From a virus (lineage: Duplodnaviria; Heunggongvirae; Uroviricota; Caudoviricetes): a stretch of 9,532 nucleotides of DNA. A model generated the notes under the pieces. The model was not told where the DNA came from, ran no database searches, and saw nothing but the letters and a program-made list of their open reading frames with translations. The translations under genes were made by a program, and so were the position numbers. The stretch is from the IMG/VR virus record IMGVR_UViG_2778261577_000002, positions 1-9,532 of that record; one strand, written 5' to 3'. Below are positions 1-9,532 of this stretch, piece by piece; the stretch's first letter is position 1, and the number at the start of each line of letters is the position of its first letter.

Positions 1-55
1 AGTCATCGGGCATTATCTGAACATAAAACACTATCAATAAGTTGGAGTCATTACC
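1..55 (+). mobile_element. IS1: IS1 right-end fragment: last insB codons (2-40, ...KVIGHYLNIKHYQ*) plus terminal inverted repeat ending GGAGTCATTACC at 55
   Basis: Recognised by recall as the canonical IS1 3' terminus; frame 2..40 translates to the InsB C-terminus with TAA at 38-40; the element is cut by the window edge. Confidence 0.93.
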
Positions 56-376
56 CAATAGTTGTATTGAATCACTGACGAGACAGCCTCATATTTATCA
101 GGACTGGTGTGCGTCTAATACAGGGGGTTGTCGTGCTGGTTCTCAAATGTGCGCTGGCTATTGCGGCTGTAATGGCAATTTATTGTCTTGCTGTTGTTCT
201 TATGGAGCGGCTTTCTGATTGATTACATACTGGCTAGAAAAAAGGTGTTACCTTGGTTTATCTTTGTCCGGCAAGGTGCGCTCATTAATCTTAAGTAAAT
301 TTATTGCTCAAGTATTCAGATTACTTCTTATGGTTGAAGTCTCCTGTCAATGTAGAACCAATATATTTACAAAAAT

Positions 377-406
377 GAGACCCGTCGGGGATAGCCCTGC
401 CGGGTC
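377..406 (-). terminator. Rho-independent terminator downstream of the minus-strand YeaR-like gene
   Basis: Inverted repeat AGACCCG...CGGGTCT (377-383 / 400-406) forms a GC-rich hairpin; on the minus strand it is followed by a T-run (complement of CAAAAATG at about 369-376), just past the CDS stop at 437-439. Confidence 0.55.
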
Positions 407-436
407 TGACGGTTAAAGCATTTTTAATATGATCAT

Positions 437-775
437 CTATTTTTTGGTGCTATAGACTTTTTCGCCCGAGAAGTCTGGAGCGACCCAAAAGTTAATATTA
501 AACTGAGCATCATCGCTTAGTTCAACACGGTGCCAGTATTGTGGTGGGCTTGTTGCAAAAGCGCCAGCATTAATGACTACTTTTATCTCCGGTTCAGTAG
601 CATTCTCATCAGTAAAACCATAATATGTTACAGTGCCTTCCATTACGCACAACTGCCCAAAAACACCTGCTGCTGTATTATGATGTGTTAATAACGCTGA
701 AGGTACGTTCTCTTTTGTGAAGAACGGAGTTGAGCGTTTGATTACCCAATCTTTAGGAATTCTCTTGTGTGTCAT
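437..775 (-). CDS. YeaR-like DUF1971-family protein (small cupin-like, TehB-N-terminal-related), 112 aa
   Basis: Six-frame ORF 437..799(-); recalled similarity to E. coli YeaR along the whole length (KRSTPF, VMxG, EP, AGxFA, PP, WH, FNI blocks). Start placed at the internal ATG 775-773 (MTHKRIP...) because a strong SD GAGGAGGTGG lies about 6 nt upstream on the minus strand; the ATG at 799 has no SD. Confidence 0.8.
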   Translation of the reverse strand: MTHKRIPKDWVIKRSTPFFTKENVPSALLTHHNTAAGVFGQLCVMEGTVTYYGFTDENATEPEIKVVINAGAFATSPPQYWHRVELSDDAQFNINFWVAPDFSGEKVYSTKK

Positions 776-790
776 AACCACCTCCTCAAA

Positions 791-813
791 AACATGCATT
801 ATAAATGCGTGTT
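791..813. promoter_or_regulatory. Imperfect palindrome AACATGCATTA-T-AAATGCGTGTT resembling an NsrR (Rrf2-family) operator, overlapping a minus-strand TATAAT (798-803) just upstream of the YeaR-like gene
   Basis: Both half-sites match the recalled 11-1-11 NsrR consensus (AAnATGCATTT n AAATGCATnTT) with one mismatch each. The minus strand reads GCATTTATAATGCAT, so a perfect -10 hexamer sits inside the palindrome. A perfect TTGACA lies 21 nt further upstream on the minus strand, which is non-canonical spacing. Confidence 0.4.
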
Positions 814-1100
814 TTTGAGGGTTATGTCAAGCTGTTATGAAACACATAATTGATATGTTGATTAGAGGAGAAGATATAATAAATATGGTTGTTTTTCGTA
901 TAACTATTTGTTTTACTTTTAGTTTATGCATTCTGTGTGTTAGGAATAAGTTATTAAAGTTTAATCAAAAAATCTCGATGTAGTCCACATAGATTATTGT
1001 TACTGAACCTTATTGTGTGTATTAGTTGTGTTCTGAAATTTCAGCTTAATTATTTATGATGTATTTTTTAACGATAAATATTTTCCCAGGATACCTTTAC

Positions 1101-1127
1101 TGTGTATATAAATAAATTATATACACA
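1101..1127. repeat. Perfect 10-bp inverted repeat TGTGTATATA-(7 nt)-TATATACACA in the AT-rich intergenic region
   Basis: Read directly: 1101-1110 is the reverse complement of 1118-1127, with spacer AATAAAT. Candidate operator or protein-binding site; function unknown. Confidence 0.5.
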
Positions 1128-1502
1128 TAAATAATGTAAAGGCGTCCTTTTAGATATATCTTATCAAATGTTAATGACTTGAGTGGGAAATATGATTCCA
1201 GCAACTTATCATGTGGCTACTTTATAAAAATAATGCCCATATAAAACAACAAGCGAAAAGGATTACGGATAAAAAAGGAGCGAGATGTGCGAACTTGTTA
1301 TTTTCCATGTTTAACCACCTTAAATAATTGATGATGACGGGATGATTGCATCTGTAATGCTTTTATTGAAATGTTATGATAAAAAAGAACTTTTGCATAA
1401 CATTAAAATGTAATTTATCTAATCGTTTTTAATAATAAATGTCGTATTTCTATCCTTGTACCAGCTATTTGATATGTAGTGTTTGTTCATGCTATGTGGG
1501 GC

Positions 1503-1530
1503 TTTACACCATAGCCAGTTTATTTATACT
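1503..1530 (+). promoter_or_regulatory. Candidate sigma70 promoter for the DUF1367-YbcO-Q block (-35 TTTACA, 16-bp spacer, -10 TATACT)
   Basis: TTTACA at 1503-1508 and TATACT at 1525-1530, about 60 bp upstream of the ATG at 1589. Sequence match only. Confidence 0.3.
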
Positions 1531-1588
1531 TTATTCGTCAGCCTGAACAACTGGCATCTGTTGCGCTGCGCCATCGAGAGATTGAGAA

Positions 1589-2188
1589 ATGGCGCATATA
1601 CAACTGGTCAAACAAACCTCTTCTGGTTTACTTCTCCCGGCGACGCCGGAGAGTTGCGATTTTCTGCATCAAATCAAAATAGGTGAGTGGATACACGCAG
1701 ACTTTAAGCGTGTGCGTAACTACGCATTCCACAAGCGTTTTTTCAAACTCCTGCAACTGGGATTCGATTACTGGACTCCGGTCGGTGGGGCGATCACACC
1801 TCGCGAACGAGAACTGCTGTCTGGTTTCGTGGATTACTTGTGCGAATCAGTTGGTCGGGAACACACACCAGCCCTGAGTGATGCCGCAGAGCAATATCTA
1901 AATACAGTTGCGACACGCAGAACTCGGGATACGGCATTGCTAAAGTCGTTTGAGGCTTTCCGCGAGTGGGTAACCATTCAGGCCGGATTTTACACCGAGC
2001 ATATTTATCCGGACGGTAGCCGTGGGCGCAGGGCGAAATCCATCGCGTTTGCGAATATGGACGAAACCGAGTTTCAGCAGGTTTATAAATCTGTTCTGAA
2101 TGTGCTGTGGAACTGGATTCTGTTCCGTAAATTCTCCTCTCAGGAGGAAGTTGAAAATGTGGCCGCACAACTACTGGAGTTTGCGTAA
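1589..2188 (+). CDS. Conserved lambdoid-prophage protein, probably DUF1367 family (199 aa), function unknown
   Basis: Clean 199-aa ORF whose stop overlaps the next gene's start (TAATG at 2186-2190). The family assignment is from recall of the DUF1367-DUF1364-Q arrangement in E. coli prophages, not from a search. Confidence 0.7.
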   Translation: MAHIQLVKQTSSGLLLPATPESCDFLHQIKIGEWIHADFKRVRNYAFHKRFFKLLQLGFDYWTPVGGAITPRERELLSGFVDYLCESVGREHTPALSDAAEQYLNTVATRRTRDTALLKSFEAFREWVTIQAGFYTEHIYPDGSRGRRAKSIAFANMDETEFQQVYKSVLNVLWNWILFRKFSSQEEVENVAAQLLEFA

Positions 2189-2478
2189 TGGTGAATTTAC
2201 GTAAAGCGGCTAAAGGCCAGATGTGCCAGATCAGAATCCCTGGCTACTGCAATCACAATCCCGAAACCTCTGTGCTGGCGCATTACAGGCTGGCGGGGAC
2301 GTGCGGAACAGCGACAAAACCACACGATATGCAGGCAGCGATTGCCTGTAGCTCATGCCACGATTTAATCGACGGGCGGGTAAAAACCAGCGATTACACC
2401 AAAGAAGAATTACGCCTGATGCATGCAGAAGGTGTTTTTCGCACACAAGAAATCTGGAGAAAGGAAGGTTATTTATGA
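2188..2478 (+). CDS. ybcO: YbcO-like DUF1364-family protein (putative phage nuclease), 96 aa
   Basis: Recalled near-colinear similarity to DLP12 YbcO (RKAAxGxxCQxRIPGxCNxNPETSVLAH...TKP...IACSxCHD). Start overlaps the upstream stop (TAATG); stop overlaps the downstream start (ATGA at 2475-2478). Confidence 0.85.
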   Translation: MVNLRKAAKGQMCQIRIPGYCNHNPETSVLAHYRLAGTCGTATKPHDMQAAIACSSCHDLIDGRVKTSDYTKEELRLMHAEGVFRTQEIWRKEGYL

Positions 2479-3017
2479 TTTACCCAACAAATACAGGCAA
2501 AAGCGGGGAACACCTTCGTCTCACCACGCTGGAAAGTGTCTGGATTCAGGGAAAACTGCGCATGTGGGGGCGCTGGTCGTATATTGGCGGCGGTAAGACG
2601 GGAAATATGTTTAACCAGTTGCTGGCATCCAAAAAATTGACGAAAACAGCCGTCAATGAAGCCCTGCGCAGGATGAAAAAAGCGGGAATAGAGAAACCTG
2701 AGCTGGAAGCGTTTTTGCGAGAGATGATCAATGGCAAGCAAAAGACCTGGCTGGCGCATTGTACTGATGCAGAGGCGTTATGTATTGATAGAGTCATAAG
2801 TGAGGTGCTGGCAAAACACCCAGGATTGATTTGTATCCTCCGGCAACGATATGAAGGGAGGGGGATGACTAAGCGTAAAATGGCTGAATTGCTGAATGAT
2901 GCACATCCTGAGTGGTGTTTTAGCACATGCGAAAAGCGAATTGCTAATTGGTTAGCCGTTGCTGAATATGCCCTGTATATTCCCATGCGAGAATCATTTG
3001 CTCAAAAAATAGCTTGA
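2475..3017 (+). CDS. Putative late-gene antiterminator Q (non-lambda, possibly phage-21-type family), 180 aa
   Basis: ATG 2475 is preceded by AGGAAGG and overlaps the YbcO stop. Position is the canonical Q slot: after the nin-like genes and before a tR'-like terminator, tRNAs and the lysis cassette. No CxxC zinc motif as in lambda or 82 Q. The assignment is by synteny and size, not by a recognised motif. Confidence 0.6.
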   Translation: MIYPTNTGKSGEHLRLTTLESVWIQGKLRMWGRWSYIGGGKTGNMFNQLLASKKLTKTAVNEALRRMKKAGIEKPELEAFLREMINGKQKTWLAHCTDAEALCIDRVISEVLAKHPGLICILRQRYEGRGMTKRKMAELLNDAHPEWCFSTCEKRIANWLAVAEYALYIPMRESFAQKIA

Positions 3018-3101
3018 TTTTTTACGCATAAATTGCTTCAATTCCGGTATGCTTCGCAAAGCTGTATCGCGAGGCGAACCAAGCGCATGAACTTTACCAG
3101 A

Positions 3102-3130
3102 ACCCGCCATTGAGCGGGTTTTGTTGTTTC
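3102..3130 (+). terminator. Rho-independent terminator (tR'-like) downstream of the Q gene
   Basis: Hairpin ACCCGC-cattga-GCGGGT (3102-3119) followed by TTTGTTGTTTC, about 85 bp after the Q stop. This is where lambdoid phages carry pR' and tR'. Confidence 0.6.
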
Positions 3131-3170
3131 TGGGGGGGCATTTCGTTAAATGAAGCTGTGTTGTGCGCAA

Positions 3171-3210
3171 TTAGCTAATAACACGAATCGTGAATGTATA
3201 TAATGCGCTT
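3171..3210 (+). promoter_or_regulatory. Candidate stable-RNA-type promoter upstream of the tRNAs (-10 TATAAT at 3199-3204 followed by a GCGC discriminator)
   Basis: TATAATGCGC resembles the rRNA/tRNA promoter -10 plus GC-rich discriminator, and the upstream DNA is AT-rich. No good -35 at 16-18 bp spacing, so confidence is low. The tRNAs could instead be read from pR'. Confidence 0.3.
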
Positions 3211-3351
3211 GTTCCTTCGATGGTGTATTCGAATAACGGATTACTGAATACAGCTATCCCATTAAGGGAACACCGCCATCTGCTCATCGGGAAGAGCCGA
3301 CCATCATTTAAGTGGTAGGTGTGAGATTCGATACCTCGGTGGCGGTTCTGT

Positions 3352-3427
<76 letters not shown>

Positions 3428-3430
3428 TAT

Positions 3431-3505
<75 letters not shown>

Positions 3506-3781
3506 GCATTTGAAATAAGCCTTATTGTATTGCAGCACTGGCGTATTTTTATTACGTGGGAGCAGGTTGTTTCGAAAAAGCATTCTGTTCTCTGGCTATG
3601 ATTTGAGGCCAGGTGTAGCCTCAGTGCTGATTTTTTTACGGCAGCAGAATGGTGCATTATCGGTGGAGATTTTGTATTTCCTGGCAGGGCCGGTGATGTG
3701 CCATCCCGATGTTGTAAACATCGCTAAAAATGACATTGAGATTAATCATATACTAAGCAAAACCTGGAAATACATCCTTTA

Positions 3782-3807
3782 CCGCCTCCACCGGGCGGTT
3801 TTTTTTA
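3782..3807 (+). terminator. Rho-independent terminator in the Q-to-S interval
   Basis: CCGCC-tccacc-GGGCGG hairpin (3782-3798) followed directly by a run of nine T (3799-3807). Confidence 0.6.
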
Positions 3808-4190
3808 TTCTGAACCCTAAAAAAAGAAACACGGACACTGATAATGCCCGTGTGGCAATGCCATGTAAGTTAGCGATGAATATGGCGCAAAAAAAGCGCG
3901 GCCGTCGGATTAACGCCGCGGGACAAAGTCCATGAAGAATCATAAGTATTGGCCCCCTTCTGGGACATGTTCATACTACTAAGCTTCAGAAGTGGTTTAA
4001 ATCATCAAATTAACCTTAATTTTCGATAAGTCTTATTTCATTTCTTTGCGCCACATCTGGCGCGCATCAAATAACGCCACGCAAAGGGCATCTGCGGATG
4101 CCGGTGCTTTTGACGGGGTGTTTTTTACGGGCCGCTGGTGGCCATTTTTTGTTTCCATTACACAGCGCCCGCATCTGCGAGGTGGGGGTT

Positions 4191-4406
4191 ATGAAATCCA
4201 TGGATAAGTTAACAACGGGTGTCGCCTATGGCACCTCCGCAGGCAGTGCTGGCTACTGGTTTTTACAGTTGCTCGATAGAGTAACTCCGTCACAGTGGGC
4301 TGCAATCGGTGTGCTGGGTAGTCTGGTTTTTGGCCTGCTGACGTACCTGACAAACCTTTATTTCAAGATTAAAGAAGATAAGCGCAAGGCTGCGAGAGGT
4401 GAATAA
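4191..4406 (+). CDS. S: Phage-21-type class II holin (pinholin S21-like) with dual-start motif MKSMDK, 71 aa
   Basis: Strong recalled similarity to S21/EssD ([25 protein letters not shown]...[14 protein letters not shown]...[20 protein letters not shown]). SD GAGGTGGGGG upstream of ATG 4191. The six-frame ORF 4098..4406 extends upstream, but the homologous start is 4191. Stop TAA overlaps the endolysin ATG. Confidence 0.93.
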
Positions 4407-4903
4407 TGCCTCCATCATTACGAAAAGCCGTTGCTGCTGCTATTGGTGGCGGAGCAATTGCTATAGCATCAGTGTTAATCACTGGCCCAAGTGGTAACGA
4501 TGGTCTGGAAGGTGTCAGCTACATACCATACAAAGATATTGTTGGTGTATGGACTGTATGTCACGGGCATACAGGAAAAGACATCATGCTCGGTAAAACG
4601 TATACCAAAGCAGAATGCAAAGCACTCTTGAATAAAGACCTTGCCACTGTCGCCAGACAAATTAACCCGTACATCGAAGTCGATATACCGGAAACAACGC
4701 GCGGCGCTCTTTACTCATTCGTTTACAACGTGGGTGCTGGCAATTTCAGAACATCGACGCTTCTTCGCAAAATAAACCAGGGCGATATCAAAGGCGCATG
4801 TGATCAGCTACGTCGCTGGACATATGCTGGCGGTAAGCAATGGAAAGGTCTCATGACTCGTCGTGAGATTGAGCGTGAAATCTGTTTGTGGGGTCAGCAA
4901 TGA
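4406..4903 (+). CDS. R: SAR endolysin (phage 21 R21-like lysozyme, T4-lysozyme fold with N-terminal signal-anchor-release domain), 165 aa
   Basis: N-terminal Gly/Ala-rich weakly hydrophobic SAR segment ([20 protein letters not shown]) followed by a lysozyme core with the catalytic E...D...T spacing ([18 protein letters not shown]). Strong recalled similarity to R21/RrrD. Start overlaps the holin stop (TAATG); stop overlaps the Rz start (ATGA). Confidence 0.93.
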
Positions 4904-5365
4904 ACAGAGTAACCGCGATTATCTCCGCTCTGGTTATCTGCATCATCGTCTGCCTGTCATGGGCTGTTAATCATTAACGTGATAACGCCATTACCTACAA
5001 AGCCCAGCGCGACAAAAATGCCAGAGAACTGAAGCTGGCGAACGCGGCAATTACTGACATGCAGATGCGCCAGCGTGATGTTGCTGCACTGGATGAAAAA
5101 TACACGAAGGAGTTAGCTAATGCGAAAGCTGAAAATGATGCTCTGCGTGATGATGTTGCCGCTGGTCGTCGTCGGTTGCACATCAAAGCAGTCTGTCAGT
5201 CAGTGCGTGAAGCCACCACCGCCTCCGGCGTGGATAATGCAGCCTCCCCCCCGACTGGCAGACACCGCTGAACGGGATTATTTCACCCTCCGGGAACGAC
5301 TGGTAATGATGCAGGCCCAACTTGAAGGTGCTCAGCAATACATAACCGAACAGTGTTTAAAGTAA
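4900..5365 (+). pseudogene. Rz: Rz (i-spanin) pseudogene: in-frame TAA at codon 26 (4975-4977) plus a +1 frameshift in a C7 tract (about 5246-5252)
   Basis: The frame from ATG 4900 gives [25 protein letters not shown] then TAA where lambda-type Rz has Tyr. The same frame continues with Rz-like sequence ([34 protein letters not shown]...[24 protein letters not shown]) until the C-run, after which the Rz C-terminus ([17 protein letters not shown]...) is only readable in the +1 frame. Confidence 0.85.
5120..5365 (+). pseudogene. Rz1: Rz1 (o-spanin lipoprotein) reading frame embedded in Rz; signal peptide and lipobox are intact, but the frame is shifted into the Rz C-terminus by the C7 tract
   Basis: ORF 5120..5365 starts with a typical Rz1 N-terminus ([20 protein letters not shown]...[16 protein letters not shown]) and then reads [11 protein letters not shown]..., which is Rz sequence. 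With six C instead of seven the frame would read ...[20 protein letters not shown], a canonical Rz1 end. Confidence 0.75.
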
Positions 5366-5502
5366 AATCTTAACTACAATATGATTCATTTTGATGATTG
5401 TTTCATAAGGAACAGTGAAGTAAGATCTAAGAGGAGTTAAATTTTATACAGTATAATCATAATATTGCAGCAAGGTGGTTATAATTGAAAGAATATTTAG
5501 AT

Positions 5503-6960
5503 ATGAATACATCTCATGTAAGAGTTGTTACTCATATGTGTGGGTTTCTGGTTTGGCTCTATAGTCTTTCAATGTTGCCACCAATGGTTGTAGCATTGTT
5601 TTATAAAGAAAAAAGCCTGTTCGTTTTCTTTATAACTTTCGTTATGTTTTTTTGCATTGGTGGCGGAGCGTGGTATACAACTAAGAAATCTGGCATTCAA
5701 TTACGTACCCGTGATGGGTTTATTATAATTGTAATGTTTTGGATTTTGTTTTCTGTTATTAGTGCATTCCCTTTATGGATTGACTCAGAACTTAATTTAA
5801 CGTTCATTGATGCTCTGTTTGAAGGGGTTTCTGGAATAACAACAACAGGAGCAACTGTAATTGATGATGTTAGTTCATTACCTCGGGCATATTTGTACTA
5901 TCGGTCACAGTTAAATTTTATAGGTGGTTTAGGAGTTATTGTTCTGGCGGTTGCTGTATTGCCATTATTGGGTATTGGTGGTGCAAAGCTTTATCAGTCA
6001 GAAATGCCGGGGCCATTTAAGGATGACAAACTCACTCCCCGCCTGGCCGATACGTCACGGACACTGTGGATAACTTATTCTTTATTAGGTATTGCTTGTA
6101 TTGTCTGTTATAGACTTGCAGGAATGCCTTTGTTTGATGCTATTTGTCACGGGATTTCCACAGTTTCGCTTGGTGGTTTCTCAACTCATAGCGAGAGTAT
6201 CGGATATTTTAATAACTATTTGGTTGAGCTGGTGGCTGGTTCTTTTTCCCTGCTATCGGCTTTCAACTTCACTCTTTGGTATATTGTTATTAGCAGGAAA
6301 ACGATAAAACCTTTAATCAGAGATATTGAACTTCGTTTCTTTCTGTTAATAGCCTTAGGGGTGATCATTGTTACCTCTTTCCAGGTCTGGCATATAGGTA
6401 TGTATGACTTGCATGGAAGTTTTATTCATTCGTTTTTTCTTGCCAGCTCCATGCTCACTGATAATGGTTTAGCTACGCAGGATTATGCAAACTGGCCCAC
6501 GCACACGATAGTGTTTTTGCTGTCGTCAAGTTTCTTTGGGGGATGTATAGGTTCAACTTGTGGTGGAATTAAGTCACTTCGATTTCTTATACTTTTCAAA
6601 CAAAGCAAACACGAGATAAATCAGCTTTCTCATCCCAGAGCGTTGTTGAGTGTAAATGTAGGAGGGAAGATAGTTACAGATCGTGTAATGAGGTCTGTAT
6701 GGAGTTTCTTTTTTCTTTATACTCTCTTCACGGTGTTTTTTATACTGGTGTTAAATGGTATGGGATATGATTTTCTTACATCATTTGCAACAGTGGCTGC
6801 ATGTATTAATAATATGGGATTAGGTTTTGGGGCTACTGCATCGTCATTCGGAGTGCTTAATGACATTGCAAAATATTTAATGTGCATAGCTATGATTCTT
6901 GGTCGCCTTGAAATTTATCCTGTTATTATATTGTTTTCAGGTTTTTTTTGGCGCTCCTAA
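5503..6960 (+). CDS. trkG: TrkH/TrkG-family potassium uptake membrane protein (Rac prophage trkG-like), 485 aa from ATG 5503
   Basis: Long polytopic membrane ORF, recognised by recall as near-identical to E. coli K-12 TrkG (MNTSHVRVVTHMCGFLVWLYSLSMLPP...). AT-rich compared with its neighbours. An in-frame TTG at 5485 with a well-spaced SD (AGGTGG, 5473-5478) is an alternative start. Confidence 0.93.
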   Translation: MNTSHVRVVTHMCGFLVWLYSLSMLPPMVVALFYKEKSLFVFFITFVMFFCIGGGAWYTTKKSGIQLRTRDGFIIIVMFWILFSVISAFPLWIDSELNLTFIDALFEGVSGITTTGATVIDDVSSLPRAYLYYRSQLNFIGGLGVIVLAVAVLPLLGIGGAKLYQSEMPGPFKDDKLTPRLADTSRTLWITYSLLGIACIVCYRLAGMPLFDAICHGISTVSLGGFSTHSESIGYFNNYLVELVAGSFSLLSAFNFTLWYIVISRKTIKPLIRDIELRFFLLIALGVIIVTSFQVWHIGMYDLHGSFIHSFFLASSMLTDNGLATQDYANWPTHTIVFLLSSSFFGGCIGSTCGGIKSLRFLILFKQSKHEINQLSHPRALLSVNVGGKIVTDRVMRSVWSFFFLYTLFTVFFILVLNGMGYDFLTSFATVAACINNMGLGFGATASSFGVLNDIAKYLMCIAMILGRLEIYPVIILFSGFFWRS

Positions 6961-7046
6961 TATATGGCTGATTTATAATTGTGAGTTTAATATTATGTTG
7001 ACTCACTCATTGATCCAATACCTAACTTTACCAGCAACCCCTCCGT

Positions 7047-7080
7047 CCCCAGTAGCACTGGCTGCTGGGGTGCGTTTTAT
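7047..7080 (+). terminator. Possible terminator after trkG
   Basis: Hairpin CCCCAG...CTGGGG (7047-7052 / 7065-7070) followed by TGCGTTTTATT. The T-run is interrupted, so this is weak. Confidence 0.3.
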
Positions 7081-7097
7081 TCATAAAGCAAGGCTGT

Positions 7098-7889
7098 ATG
7101 AGCGAGAAATTAAAGATAGTCTATCGCCCATTACAAGAATTGCCACCGTATGCGCACAACGCCAGGACGCACAGCCCTGAGCAGGTGGCACAACTGGTAG
7201 AAAGTATTAAGCAATTCGGCTGGACTAATCCGGTGCTGATTGACGAAAAGGGCGAAATTATTGCGGGTCACGGTCGTGTTATGGCGGCTGAAATGCTCAA
7301 AATGGATTCTGTTCCGGTCATTGTTCTGTCTGGCCTGACGGATGAGCAGAAAAAGGCGTACCGCCTGGCAGATAATCGCCTGCCGATGAATGCTGGCTGG
7401 GATGAAGATCTGTTGCGGATGGAGCTGTCGGACCTAATCAATGCTGATTTTGATGTCTCCCTGACAGGCTTCATCCCGACAGAAATTGATGAACTGTTGA
7501 CGGATGTTTTGCCCGGTACAGGAAATGAGGAGGAGCCGTATACGACGAAAATTGATACGCCTGTTTATGAGCCGTCGGGCGGTAAACCGGATATCAGTGA
7601 ACTGTACGACGATACGAAAACTCAGGAGCTGATCAGCCGGATACGTTCGGCGTCCCTTGAGCCTGATATTGAGAAATTCCTCCTGTGTGCGGCAGAACGT
7701 CACACGGTGTTTAATTTCAGCAGAATTGCGGACTATTACGCTCACGCCCCCGCTGAAATCCAGTGTTTTTTCGAGGAGTCGGCGCTGGTGATCATTGATT
7801 ATCAGCAGGCTATTGAAAATGGATTTGTCCGGATGACGCAGCGCATGGTGGAGATCATGCATGGTGGTGAGGAGGAGGAATATGCGTGA
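7098..7889 (+). CDS. ParB-like nuclease-domain (ParB/Srx superfamily) protein with an uncharacterised acidic C-terminal domain, 263 aa
   Basis: N-terminal about 120 aa has the ParB-N architecture (conserved ...NARTHSPEQV...L..SI...GW.NPVLID..GEIIAGHGR..AA motif). The C-terminal part has no methyltransferase motifs and ends GGEEEEYA. The stop TGA (7887-7889) overlaps the downstream start. Related to K-12 Rac ynaK by position. Confidence 0.8.
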   Translation: MSEKLKIVYRPLQELPPYAHNARTHSPEQVAQLVESIKQFGWTNPVLIDEKGEIIAGHGRVMAAEMLKMDSVPVIVLSGLTDEQKKAYRLADNRLPMNAGWDEDLLRMELSDLINADFDVSLTGFIPTEIDELLTDVLPGTGNEEEPYTTKIDTPVYEPSGGKPDISELYDDTKTQELISRIRSASLEPDIEKFLLCAAERHTVFNFSRIADYYAHAPAEIQCFFEESALVIIDYQQAIENGFVRMTQRMVEIMHGGEEEEYA

Positions 7890-8814
7890 TGATTTTTGCG
7901 CCTTTATTCTGACTCACGGGCGACCGGACAAAGTTCTGACTTACCGGACGTTGCGTCGTGCTGGCTATACCGGGAAAATTTTTATCGTTGTTGATGATGA
8001 AGATAAGACACGGCATCAGTACATGGCTGAATTTGGTGAACAGGTGCTGGTGTTTTCCAAAGCCGATATCGCCAGTCGTTTTGACGAAGCCGATAATTTC
8101 TGTGACCGCCGCTCAATTTTTTACGCCCGTAATGCCTGTTTCGACCAGGCAAAACTGGTCGGGTGTAAATACTTCATTCAGCTCGATGATGATTATCACG
8201 AGTTCCAGTTTCGGGTGGATCGCAACTATGACCAGGCCTATTTTCCGATAAGGAAACTGGATGCGATCCTTTCTGAAATGCTGGCGTACTACGAATCAAT
8301 ACCTGCTCTTTCCATCGCTATGTCGCAGGGAGGGGATTTTCTTGGTGACAATGGCGGCCATGCTTCGTGGGTGAAACGCAAGGCAATGAACAGCTTTATC
8401 TGTTCGGTTGATCGACCGTTCTCATTCATGGGGCGCATTAACGAGGATGTGAATACGTACACGAATCTCGGTCGCTGTGGTGAATTGTTTATGACGATCG
8501 GTGCTGTCCAGTTAGGGCAGAAACAGACGCAGAAAAACAGCGGCGGAATGACCGAGCTGTATCTGGATTCCGGAACCTACGTTAAAAGTTTTTACTCCGT
8601 CATGTATGCGCCGTCGTGCGTAAAAATCTCACTGATGGGTGCCAGCCATAAACGCATTCACCATCAGGTCACCTGGAACAACGCTGCAGTAAAAATCCTT
8701 CACGAAAAATACAGGAAGAAGACACCCTGCATATCAATGGGGGTGACAAATGATTCCGTATTCGAAAGTCGAGTCTCTGGCAGCGTGCCGGATGACTGCA
8801 CAACAAATCGCTGA
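7882..8814 (+). CDS. Uncharacterised protein with a GT-A-like nucleotide-sugar transferase signature (N-terminal beta-strand CAFILTHGRP, FIVVDDED, DxD-type motif QLDDDYHEF), 310 aa from ATG 7882
   Basis: The ORF is open from 7861. ATG 7882 is preferred because GAGGAGGAGG lies 5-6 nt upstream and it overlaps the ParB-like stop by 8 nt, suggesting translational coupling; ATG 7861 with SD GGTGGAG is a possible alternative. The fold call is a motif-based inference, not a database match. Confidence 0.7.
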   Translation: MRDDFCAFILTHGRPDKVLTYRTLRRAGYTGKIFIVVDDEDKTRHQYMAEFGEQVLVFSKADIASRFDEADNFCDRRSIFYARNACFDQAKLVGCKYFIQLDDDYHEFQFRVDRNYDQAYFPIRKLDAILSEMLAYYESIPALSIAMSQGGDFLGDNGGHASWVKRKAMNSFICSVDRPFSFMGRINEDVNTYTNLGRCGELFMTIGAVQLGQKQTQKNSGGMTELYLDSGTYVKSFYSVMYAPSCVKISLMGASHKRIHHQVTWNNAAVKILHEKYRKKTPCISMGVTNDSVFESRVSGSVPDDCTTNR

Positions 8815-9001
8815 CGTTCTGGATGTTGATCTGAACCGACTGAAAGAAAATCGGGAAGCAATGACAGATTTTTATGCGGCCATCCGTAAGGGCAGAGCGA
8901 AAGGTGAAGCCGAGTTACGAGCGGCATTGTTTAAGCTTGCCAGAAAAGGGGATGCCTTTGCTCTGCGCGAACTACTCAGGGTGGATAAAAATCAGGACTA
9001 A
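8750..9001 (+). CDS. Small helix-turn-helix protein (83 aa), possibly a packaging-associated DNA-binding protein
   Basis: ORF with SD GGGGGTGA upstream of ATG 8750. HTH-like segment MTAQQIADVLDVDLNRLKE. Overlaps the 3' end of the upstream gene by 65 nt in another frame. Sits immediately upstream of the terminase-like fragment. Confidence 0.5.
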   Translation: MIPYSKVESLAACRMTAQQIADVLDVDLNRLKENREAMTDFYAAIRKGRAKGEAELRAALFKLARKGDAFALRELLRVDKNQD

Positions 9002-9004
9002 CTG

Positions 9005-9178
9005 ATGAGCAGACCGGACTGGGGGGCGTTGCAGCAGGAGTATATTGCTGAATACACCCGCTCCGGTATATCTCCGGTGGCATGGTGTGAAGCAAGGGGA
9101 CTGAATTACGCAACAGCCCGTCGTTACATCAAAAAAACTCCGAAAAATGCGCAGACAGAAATGTGCAAAACTGGGTGA
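9005..9178 (+). pseudogene. N-terminal fragment (57 codons) of a probable terminase small subunit or HTH packaging protein, truncated by IS1 insertion
   Basis: ATG 9005 gives MSRPDWGALQQEYIAEYTRSGISPVAWCEARGLNYATARRYIKK..., resembling the N-terminal HTH of phage small terminase subunits. The frame runs into the IS1 left inverted repeat and ends at a TGA (9176-9178) contributed by the IS1 terminus GGTGATG. Confidence 0.5.
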
Positions 9179-9532
9179 TGCTGCCAACTTACTGATTTAG
9201 TGTATGATGGTGTTTTTGAGGTGCTCCAGTGGCTTCTGTTTCTATCAGCTGTCCCTCCTGTTCAGCTACTGACGGGGTGGTGCGTAACGGCAAAAGCACC
9301 GCCGGACATCAGCGCTATCTCTGCTCTCACTGCCGTAAAACATGGCAACTGCAGTTCACTTACACCGCTTCTCAACCCGGTACGCACCAGAAAATCATTG
9401 ATATGGCCATGAATGGCGTTGGATGCCGGGCAACAGCCCGCATTATGGGCGTTGGCCTCAACACGATTTTCCGCCATTTAAAAAACTCAGGCCGCAGTCG
9501 GTAACCTCGCGCATACAGCCGGGCAGTGACGT
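9174..9532 (+). mobile_element. IS1: IS1 left end (IRL GGTGATGCTGCCAACTTACTGAT) through insA and into the insA/insB junction; truncated by the window edge
   Basis: Recognised by recall as the canonical IS1 5' terminus; same orientation as the IS1 fragment at 1-55. Confidence 0.95.
9229..9504 (+). CDS. insA: IS1 InsA (transposition inhibitor / N-terminal part of the InsAB' transposase), 91 aa, GTG start
   Basis: Translation [91 protein letters not shown] matches IS1 InsA as recalled, apart from one residue (IFRH here, ILRH in the copy I remember). Confidence 0.96.

Follow-up and report, generated by a model that had tools for sequence, protein, structure and literature searches.

A ParB-like protein and a TAGT-family glycosyltransferase form an obligate gene pair, proposed to modify phage DNA, in an Escherichia coli prophage and in diverse tailed viruses

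The window analysed here, a stretch of 9,532 nucleotides (nt; positions 1 to 9,532 of the IMG/VR virus record IMGVR_UViG_2778261577_000002), is the late region of a Rac-like lambdoid Escherichia coli prophage. It contains two overlapping genes (the pair, or cassette) that encode a ParB-like protein, here called the partner, and a GT-A glycosyltransferase of the TAGT family. We estimate a probability of about 0.5 that the two proteins constitute a self-contained, partner-dependent two-subunit glycosyltransferase by which phage DNA is modified ahead of packaging, as a counter-defence. This proposal is built on family membership, fold and catalytic motif, on the obligate co-occurrence and overlap of the two genes, and on their position and the lack of a conserved third gene; from these we infer the formation of a complex, DNA as the acceptor, a sugar donor and a protective role. 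The initial annotation of the window had regarded the pair as a putative DNA-modification or anti-restriction module, a reading supported by the TAGT family of DNA-base glycosylating enzymes, by the homology of the partner to ParB-methylase proteins and by the precedent of ParB-dependent dioxygenases (PMC13229309).

The partner gene (7098-7889, plus strand) is a full-length ynaK that encodes 263 amino acids (aa), named "ynaK: ParB/Srx family N-terminal domain-containing protein" by PGAP, and the TAGT gene (7882-8814, plus strand) encodes 310 aa. As had been annotated initially, the ATG of the TAGT gene at 7882 and the TGA stop of the partner gene at 7887-7889 produce an overlap of 8 nt, and a Shine-Dalgarno sequence for TAGT, AGGAGGAGGA (7870-7879, plus strand, read from the sequence), is found within the 3' end of the partner gene. 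The listing of open reading frames (ORFs) offered an alternative upstream ATG at 7861; however, 20 of 20 aligned TAGT homologues start at the MRDDFCAFILTHGRP N-terminus (conserved MRDDFCAF...), indicating that ATG 7882 is the true start. The arrangement points to translational coupling, which favours the co-production of both proteins.

Hidden Markov models were built for the nucleotide-binding domain plus helical hairpin of the partner (NBD+HH), for its linker plus C-terminal domain (linker+CTD) and for TAGT, and 43 diverse loci were scanned with them. The loci were drawn from viral contigs and from one-genome-per-species bacterial contigs, and represent Enterobacteriaceae, Bacteroides, Dysgonomonas, Lachnospiraceae, Eubacteriales, Faecousia, Prosthecochloris, Desulfovibrionaceae, Thiotrichales, Hyphomonadaceae, Opitutia and Saccharibacteria. 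A CTD-encoding gene was found immediately upstream of the TAGT gene in 43 of 43, and, as the initial annotation had predicted, the two genes stood together in every related locus examined, in bacterial phyla and in an archaeal virus. The same order was found in six named phages: Lactobacillus delbrueckii phage c5, where the pair is ORF1 and ORF2 directly after cos; L. gasseri phage phi jlb1; Nocardia phage NTR1 (orf1 and orf2); a Porphyromonas gingivalis phage, whose TAGT is merely 27% identical while its partner still has NBD and CTD; the 191-kb Vibrio phages (phiKT1024), with a CTD-only partner; and the haloarchaeal virus HHTV-2 (genes 21 and 22). The partner stop and the TAGT start overlap by 1-11 nt in 38/43 loci; in three others 0-6 nt separate them, and L098, with a gap of ~20-45 nt, is the main exception. 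The overlap or direct abutment of stop and start in about 40 of the 43 loci, which come from many phyla, shows that the juxtaposition is not due to chance. When all neighbouring ORFs were clustered, no third conserved gene family was detected beyond subsets of loci, the terminase genes being the next most frequent. Clusters at 90% identity numbered at least 8,000 for TAGT and 7,950 for the ParB-like query.

In most loci the pair is located directly upstream of the terminase genes (small and large), which belong to at least five types (GpA, Terminase_3/6, P22 gp3-like, Sf6-like and Terminase_4/TerL). The exceptions map to replication modules: in L105 the pair lies between PolA (a family-A DNA polymerase) and the beta-clamp gene, and in L083 it follows a primase-helicase gene. 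In the window, a terminator-like hairpin with a T-run (7047-7080, plus strand; a 10-pair stem with 7 GC pairs, then TGCGTTTTAT) marks the end of the trkG moron, 18 nt 5' of the start of the ParB-like gene, and the interval 6813-7098 yielded no sigma-70-like promoter. With this strong hairpin before the pair and no promoter-like site in between, expression should depend on Q-antiterminated late transcription; the pair would then be transcribed solely by late read-through, and therefore expressed in the lytic cycle and not in the lysogen. The head module of an HK97-like phage that carries the pair also contains two genes of the GT2 family (PF00535; L003, 15837-16894; L004, 8659-9716), which may serve virion glycosylation.

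The 310-aa protein matched PF20691 (TAGT) over residues 8-222 (E 1.2e-34; 120.4 bits against a cut-off of 27.5) and phrog_842, labelled beta-glucosyl-HMC-alpha-glucosyltransferase (E 5.6e-104). The TAGT family also includes TET-associated DNA glycosyltransferases and the base-J glucosyltransferase. Structure prediction gave a GT-A fold with a DxD motif, for which the top structural matches in BFVD were TAGT-domain proteins, and the fold-level GT-A relatives include glycogenin, SunS and GalNAc-transferases. The motif, D102-D103-D104 (8185-8193), is invariant in 43 of 43, and together with G13-R14 and 70 further positions it is at least 95% conserved among the 43 homologues. The enzyme is basic (median isoelectric point, pI, 8.7; 9.7 for the C-terminal 75 residues), shares 22-24% identity with T4-like TAGTs and has no relative of solved structure among PDB sequences, as judged by sequence; PADLOC defence-system models gave no match to it. 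From its sequence and predicted structure, the second protein thus belongs to the TAGT family as a basic, soluble GT-A enzyme, for which sugar transfer is predicted. The initial annotation had described it as GT-A-like with a DxD pattern, and as neither GtrB-like nor membrane-anchored; both descriptions hold, and the profile and structure searches place it in a glycosyltransferase family and not in a structural or packaging family. A membrane or Gtr-like envelope role was considered and ruled out by hydropathy, which revealed no hydrophobic or membrane segment. The E. coli TAGT has a C-terminal extension of ~20 aa that is not present in other genera and overlaps the ORF at 8792-9001.

The partner is acidic overall (pI 4.5) and matches phrog_620 over its full length (E 5e-90). 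Its first 95 residues form a ParB/Srx nucleotide-binding domain (NBD; 7098-7382, plus strand), which contains PF02195 (ParB_N, residues 23-90, E 1.3e-6, 28.7 bits against a cut-off of 26.3) and was modelled by AlphaFold2 (AF2) with a predicted local distance difference test score (pLDDT) of 72-91. The top Foldseek matches of the NBD were CTP- or CDP-bound ParB, Noc, PadC and KorB, and sulfiredoxin was also matched. Three boxes were recognised, namely N21-x-R23 (box I), G57-H-G-R60 (box II) and D92-N93 (box III), and among 37 partners the conservation was 35/37 for N21, 36/37 for G57 and N93, and 31/37 for R23 and R60; the box-II Glu of the canonical GERR is His or Asn in the partners. The profile, the modelled fold and the box I, II and III residues place the partner in the ParB/Srx group, with NTP binding predicted. 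A helical hairpin follows at residues 96-135 (HH; 7383-7502, plus strand; AF2 helices 103-115, 120-123 and 127-134), in which D102 of the partner is kept in 37/37.

Residues 3-141 of the partner match phrog_498, a family of ParB-methyltransferase fusions (profile positions 31-171 of 633; E 2.8e-50), and the N-terminus matches the PADLOC model MTase_II (E 4.4e-38), with matches that extend through residues ~141-144. Homologues of residues 1-140 were found in 520 phage records, many of them ParB-methylase fusions, and several of the fusion examples are located at a genome end, beside terminase or cos. The ParB-N fold named in the initial annotation, as a module often fused to DNA methyltransferases, is therefore confirmed by PF02195, Foldseek and the phrog_498 homology. 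In the partner itself no methyltransferase domain was found, and its C-terminal 120 residues match no Pfam family. Neither is it a canonical partition ParB of the ParABS type: TIGR00180 scored 37.1 bits against a cut-off of 58.45, on the N-domain only; no helix-turn-helix (HTH) was seen, the middle region being the helical hairpin and a disordered linker; and the clustering of neighbour ORFs in the 43 loci revealed no parA or other conserved neighbour.

The linker, residues 136-169, is predicted to be disordered (7503-7604, plus strand; AF2 pLDDT <50) and carries the motif Y148-[TS]-x-K151-I-x-x-P155-x-Y157 (7539-7568, plus strand), in which Y148, K151, P155 and Y157 are each conserved in 42/43. 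It leads to an acidic helical CTD, residues 170-255 (7605-7862, plus strand), which occurs only with TAGT and has five residues invariant in 43/43 (R201, Y214, E226, D234 and G242). Neither PDB sequences nor Pfam yielded a credible match in profile searches with the CTD; armadillo repeats (E ~1e-3, no significant domain) and Phage_Gene47 (E 0.02) were considered as relatives and set aside as chance-level. The "unrelated acidic C-terminal domain" of the initial annotation thus stands as regards the acidity of the protein and the lack of a methyltransferase domain, but the CTD is the most conserved and TAGT-specific part of the partner.

Compared pairwise, TAGTs share on average 60% identity, CTDs 54% and NBDs 40%; identity with the NBD of the window falls to 25-28% in Bacteroidales, and the CTD and TAGT identities are correlated (Pearson 0.86). 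A library-wide search with linker+CTD gave 1,178 representatives at 50% clustering; among the 150 representatives listed, the CTD ends within about 20 residues of the C-terminus in 147, and most are 250-310 aa long. In L109 the partner has an unrecognised N-terminal domain instead. Since the CTD tracks TAGT and the NBD diverges or drops out, the CTD and the linker motif can be regarded as the TAGT-specific element, and the ParB module as frequent and replaceable. The T4-like TAGT of Aeromonas phage 65 has no CTD; its ~110-aa N-terminal extension was considered as a fused CTD and rejected (hhalign probability 0.1%).

Several variants of the partner were found. In P0388 (534 aa; JGI 3300072015 contig; L121 and L122) an extra TAGT-family domain is fused to the NBD-HH-linker-CTD array, followed by a cognate TAGT of 292 aa and then by the large terminase subunit; a Dam gene is located two genes upstream. 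The arrangement suggests two-glycosyltransferase systems that would produce a disaccharide; no relatives of the fusion were found in IMG/VR. In a Hyphomonadaceae metagenome-assembled genome (MAG; L110, 2614-6161) a ParB-like partner is followed by a 564-aa fusion of TAGT to a class I S-adenosylmethionine (SAM) methyltransferase (Methyltransf_23/11/25) and then by a second TAGT, which may indicate a methylated or extended glycan. A prophage in a Faecousia MAG (L098, 6875-7447) encodes a second ParB_N protein, of 190 aa, immediately 3' of TAGT, and P0262 is a 433-aa partner with two tandem NBD+hairpin units before the linker and CTD.

The mechanism that we propose for the two-subunit enzyme is as follows. 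The linker motif and CTD of the partner would dock onto TAGT and activate it, and partners that possess the NBD+HH would use it to load the enzyme onto double-stranded DNA or to retain it there. TAGT would then glycosylate replicated phage DNA just before packaging, and the sugar on the packaged DNA would give resistance to nucleases in the next host. Glycosylation of DNA before packaging is the most likely function since the coupled genes are transcribed at the head of the late (packaging) operon. The opposite charges of the acidic partner and the basic TAGT also count in its favour, and the homology of the NBD-HH to ParB-methylase fusions supports a ParB module that serves a DNA-modifying enzyme. 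In a more specific and tentative form of the proposal, which we hold possible but would not favour, the cassette glycosylates canonical, unmodified DNA, at the base (e.g. an exocyclic amine or carbonyl) or at the backbone and with no need of a hydroxymethyl group, and the ParB-like subunit both delivers and activates the enzyme on double-stranded DNA.

The closest precedent is the 5mYOX176/ParB176 system of O'Toole et al. (PNAS 2026), in which phage ParB proteins activate cognate thymine dioxygenases specifically on double-stranded DNA (PMC13229309). Both accessory proteins are composed of an NBD, a helix-helix region, an unstructured linker of ~50 aa and a CTD, with no HTH, and both genes lie beside that of a post-replicative phage DNA-modifying enzyme, in clusters that often include terminase genes. 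The residues of boxes I-III are largely kept in both, although the arginine or the whole NBD is lost in some of the partners described here. ParB176 needs the NBD as well as the CTD, whereas mutations in boxes I, II and III did not abolish activation, so that the nucleotide-binding residues were surprisingly dispensable (PMC13229309). The systems differ in that the enzyme here is a GT-A glycosyltransferase and not a Fe(II)/2-oxoglutarate dioxygenase, and no dioxygenase is present; the two CTDs are matched here by architecture. Furthermore, the clade of ParB-dependent dioxygenases is linked to kinases, amidotransferases and amino-acid:DNA transferases, not to glycosyltransferases (PMC13229309).

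Likewise, in the ParB-methyltransferase fusions (phrog_498, MTase_II) a ParB module homologous to residues 1-141 of the partner is attached to a DNA-modifying catalytic unit, which in that case is a SAM methylase; here the catalytic unit is a separate glycosyltransferase polypeptide, with a dedicated CTD proposed to recruit it. A ParB-like NTPase is also found in the DpdA/DpdB 7-deazaguanine system, where DpdB is needed for the base-modifying DpdA to act on DNA. That system differs in fold, chemistry (base exchange by a transglycosylase) and context (bacterial defence), and the likeness is one of description only. Among the enzymes, the T2/T6 beta-glucosyl-HMC-alpha-glucosyltransferase belongs to PF20691 and has a GT-A fold (PMC13216743). 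It and other TAGTs share with the enzyme described here the same Pfam and PHROG families, the fold, the DxD motif, solubility and phage origin; however, TAGTs of the T2/T6 type act on glucosyl-5-hydroxymethylcytosine made by a dCMP hydroxymethylase and alpha-glucosyltransferase pathway, which is absent here, and have no CTD partner. "Solitary" TAGT homologues of undefined function were reported in 288 of 753 glycosyltransferase-bearing phages (PMC13216743), and the ParB-TAGT cassette appears to belong to this group. Pyle et al. found that ~65% of ~25,000 glycosyltransferase contigs have no adjacent dioxygenase or thymidylate-synthase-like gene, and named ParB-like proteins and terminases among the glycosyltransferase neighbours. 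Kaljevic et al. provided a catalogue of ParB-fold fusions in phages, in the text of which a term search returned no mention of glycosyltransferases. Neither an experimental study of the ParB(CTD)-TAGT pair nor a computational one dedicated to it was found in the literature.

Several observations weigh against DNA glycosylation by a ParB-assisted enzyme. In the partner no DNA-binding domain could be recognised, and AF2 confidence is low for the CTD and for the C-terminus of TAGT. The NBD is gone from partners of 133-139 aa that consist of linker+CTD only (L105, L108 and Vibrio phiKT1024, L115), and a Bacteroidales subgroup (L093, L096, L103, L107 and L111) has lost the box-II arginine (AGNGVYEQ). 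No source of hydroxymethyl-pyrimidines is annotated in the window or in the partial genome record of the near-identical phage ON470595, and no dioxygenase, hydroxymethylase or methyltransferase in the complete phages c5 (31.8 kb) and phi jlb1 (38.3 kb), where the unassigned ORFs have at most ~210 aa. When 115 non-redundant proteins encoded upstream in up to 32 loci were scanned with Pfam, the 25 families listed, of 66 matched, included no TET/JBP-type family and no other source of hydroxymethyl-pyrimidines; no Pfam family matched more than 2 of the 115 proteins, and this negative holds for recurrent association, not for each locus. The downstream genes checked were mostly terminases. At the level of recurrent association, then, the neighbour of the partner is TAGT (43/43) and there is no association with a dioxygenase; neither TET/JBP nor another source of 5-hydroxymethyl-pyrimidines was found nearby. 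The TAGT-type DNA glycosyltransferases with a known acceptor that we found all use a hydroxymethyl-pyrimidine or a sugar on one, and no such source is annotated here, so that a DNA acceptor would need new chemistry. For GREB1, a eukaryotic member of the TAGT family, glycosylation (O-GlcNAcylation) of a protein has been reported, and the family is thus not exclusively directed to DNA. Experimental data on the DNA of cassette-carrying phages were not found in the literature.

The same lack of a hydroxymethyl-base pathway is compatible with a protein as acceptor, which we regard as rather unlikely: TAGT could modify the linker Tyr or Thr of its own partner, in a self-priming reaction like that of glycogenin, or a packaging or virion protein encoded by the adjacent late genes. 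A disordered segment beside the enzyme-specific CTD contains the near-invariant hydroxyl residues Y148, [TS]149 and Y157; GREB1 and the protein- or peptide-directed glycogenin, SunS and GalNAc-transferases are found among the family or fold relatives; and the pair sits with structural and packaging genes, with further GT2 genes in the head modules of L003 and L004. However, the partner is the sole protein conserved across these phages. Their terminases, portals and capsids are of unrelated types, for which reason a virion target would not explain an enzyme identity of 50-60% across phyla. The NBD-HH module of the partner is otherwise fused to DNA methyltransferases, and the pair is also found away from the late genes, between DNA polymerase and sliding-clamp genes (L105) or after the primase-helicase (L083), all of which argues against a protein acceptor. 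A classical TAGT activity on pre-existing hydroxymethyl-pyrimidine or glucosyl-hydroxymethylcytosine, supplied by an unlinked or unrecognised gene or present in the DNA of a co-infecting T-even-like phage, which would be altered as an invader, is improbable. It would agree with the membership in PF20691 and phrog_842, with the idea of Pyle et al. that prophage glycosyltransferases might hypermodify invading genomes, and with the thousands of mined contigs of O'Toole et al. that have no TET/JBP Pfam annotation and possibly encode highly divergent dioxygenases (PMC13229309). Against it stand the small complete phages c5 and phi jlb1, which have no candidate gene among ORFs of such size, the absence of a recurrent gene family near the pair, and the identity of merely 22-24% to T4-like TAGTs. 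Further points against it are an expression that appears tied to late read-through and not to the lysogenic state, and the occurrence of the cassette in an archaeal virus and in c5, which we take as virulent since it has no annotated integrase.

The strong tie of the pair to the site just upstream of terminase could also mean that the ParB-like protein serves packaging or partition at the genome end, for example by marking pac or cos for terminase, with the glycosyltransferase as a passenger or as a modifier of envelope glycans (lysogenic conversion). The same first-gene position is indeed occupied, in phages of Rhodobacter and Vibrio, by ParB-like genes that stand alone, no glycosyltransferase being noted. 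Nevertheless, we consider this explanation very improbable, given the 43/43 co-occurrence with overlapping frames, the finding of the CTD only with TAGT, and the covalent fusion to a TAGT-family domain in P0388; the enzyme moreover has no membrane segment and is not Gtr-like, and parA, an HTH and a third conserved gene are all absent.

How restriction, CRISPR and type IV defences fare against a phage is shaped by sugar modification of its DNA, which has so far been tied to hydroxymethylated pyrimidines. Two recent papers showed that most phage GT-A genes are near no hydroxymethyl pathway and that many TAGTs are "solitary", and left this unexplained. A large part of the solitary TAGT group can now be described as a defined two-gene unit with an obligate partner, at the head of the packaging operon, in viruses of bacteria and archaea. 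If the acceptor is DNA, as proposed for the two-subunit enzyme, ParB-assisted modification would extend from dioxygenases and methylases to glycosyltransferases, and new base chemistry would be implied; if it is a protein, the pair would represent a new and widespread phage glycosylation system. Glycosylation of canonical DNA, if true, would be a new kind of DNA modification; prophages in roughly a sixth to a quarter of the complete E. coli genomes would carry it, as would tailed viruses that infect haloarchaea and many bacterial phyla. About 29% of complete E. coli genomes contain the prophage lineage of the unit: a match to the stretch was found in 1,580 of 5,426, and at least 80% of the stretch in 889. 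Since the unit belongs to a common E. coli prophage lineage and was lost from K-12 by deletion, the question of the acceptor is directly testable in E. coli.

In K-12, the Rac prophage matches the window only to position 7351 (codon ~85 of the ParB-like gene, annotated as ynaK), after which a deletion of ~11.5 kb joins ynaK to the tail-region gene ydaY (K-12 MG1655 1421000-1429000, position 4631). The initial annotation had interpreted ynaK and ydaY as short remnants at this position. This is correct for ynaK, which represents the first ~85 codons; but as the deletion spans from codon ~85 to the tail region, the glycosyltransferase was wholly lost and ydaY is no remnant of it.

Upstream of the pair, the window contains a DUF1367 gene, ybcO and the antiterminator Q gene (1589-3017), tRNA-Thr and tRNA-Gly genes (3352-3505), the lysis genes for holin, lysozyme and Rz/Rz1 (4098-5365) and the trkG moron, of low GC (36-41%), within the late operon (5485-6960; 5485-7080 with the hairpin). 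The pair had been placed between lysis and terminase genes; trkG in fact separates it from the lysis genes. A promoter-like site (5356-5385) was observed ~100 nt upstream of trkG.

Downstream, a small ORF of 69 aa (8792-9001, plus strand; a hypothetical protein in ON470595) overlaps the E. coli-specific C-terminal extension of TAGT, and a longer reading of it (8750-9001) aligns with an internal portion of the terminase small-subunit family phrog_309. A family of ~85-aa ORFs at about the same offset was found in 18/43 loci and is thought to be mainly enterobacterial. The terminase small subunit gene follows (9005-9173, plus strand; phrog_51, E 5e-26), of which the N-terminal ~56 codons precede an IS1 (left end GGTGATGCTGCC from 9174; insA 9229-9504). 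Since IS1 cuts this gene after ~56 codons, the prophage copy is probably packaging-defective, while the ParB-like and TAGT ORFs are intact. The near-identical stretch in ON470595 has the same gene order and continues into intact terminase, portal and head genes. At the other end of the window, positions 1-1500 consist of very low-GC (29-40%) cargo with a DUF1971 gene on the minus strand (437-799), and the corresponding place in ON470595 carries different cargo, AAA/FtsH-like and S8 peptidase genes.

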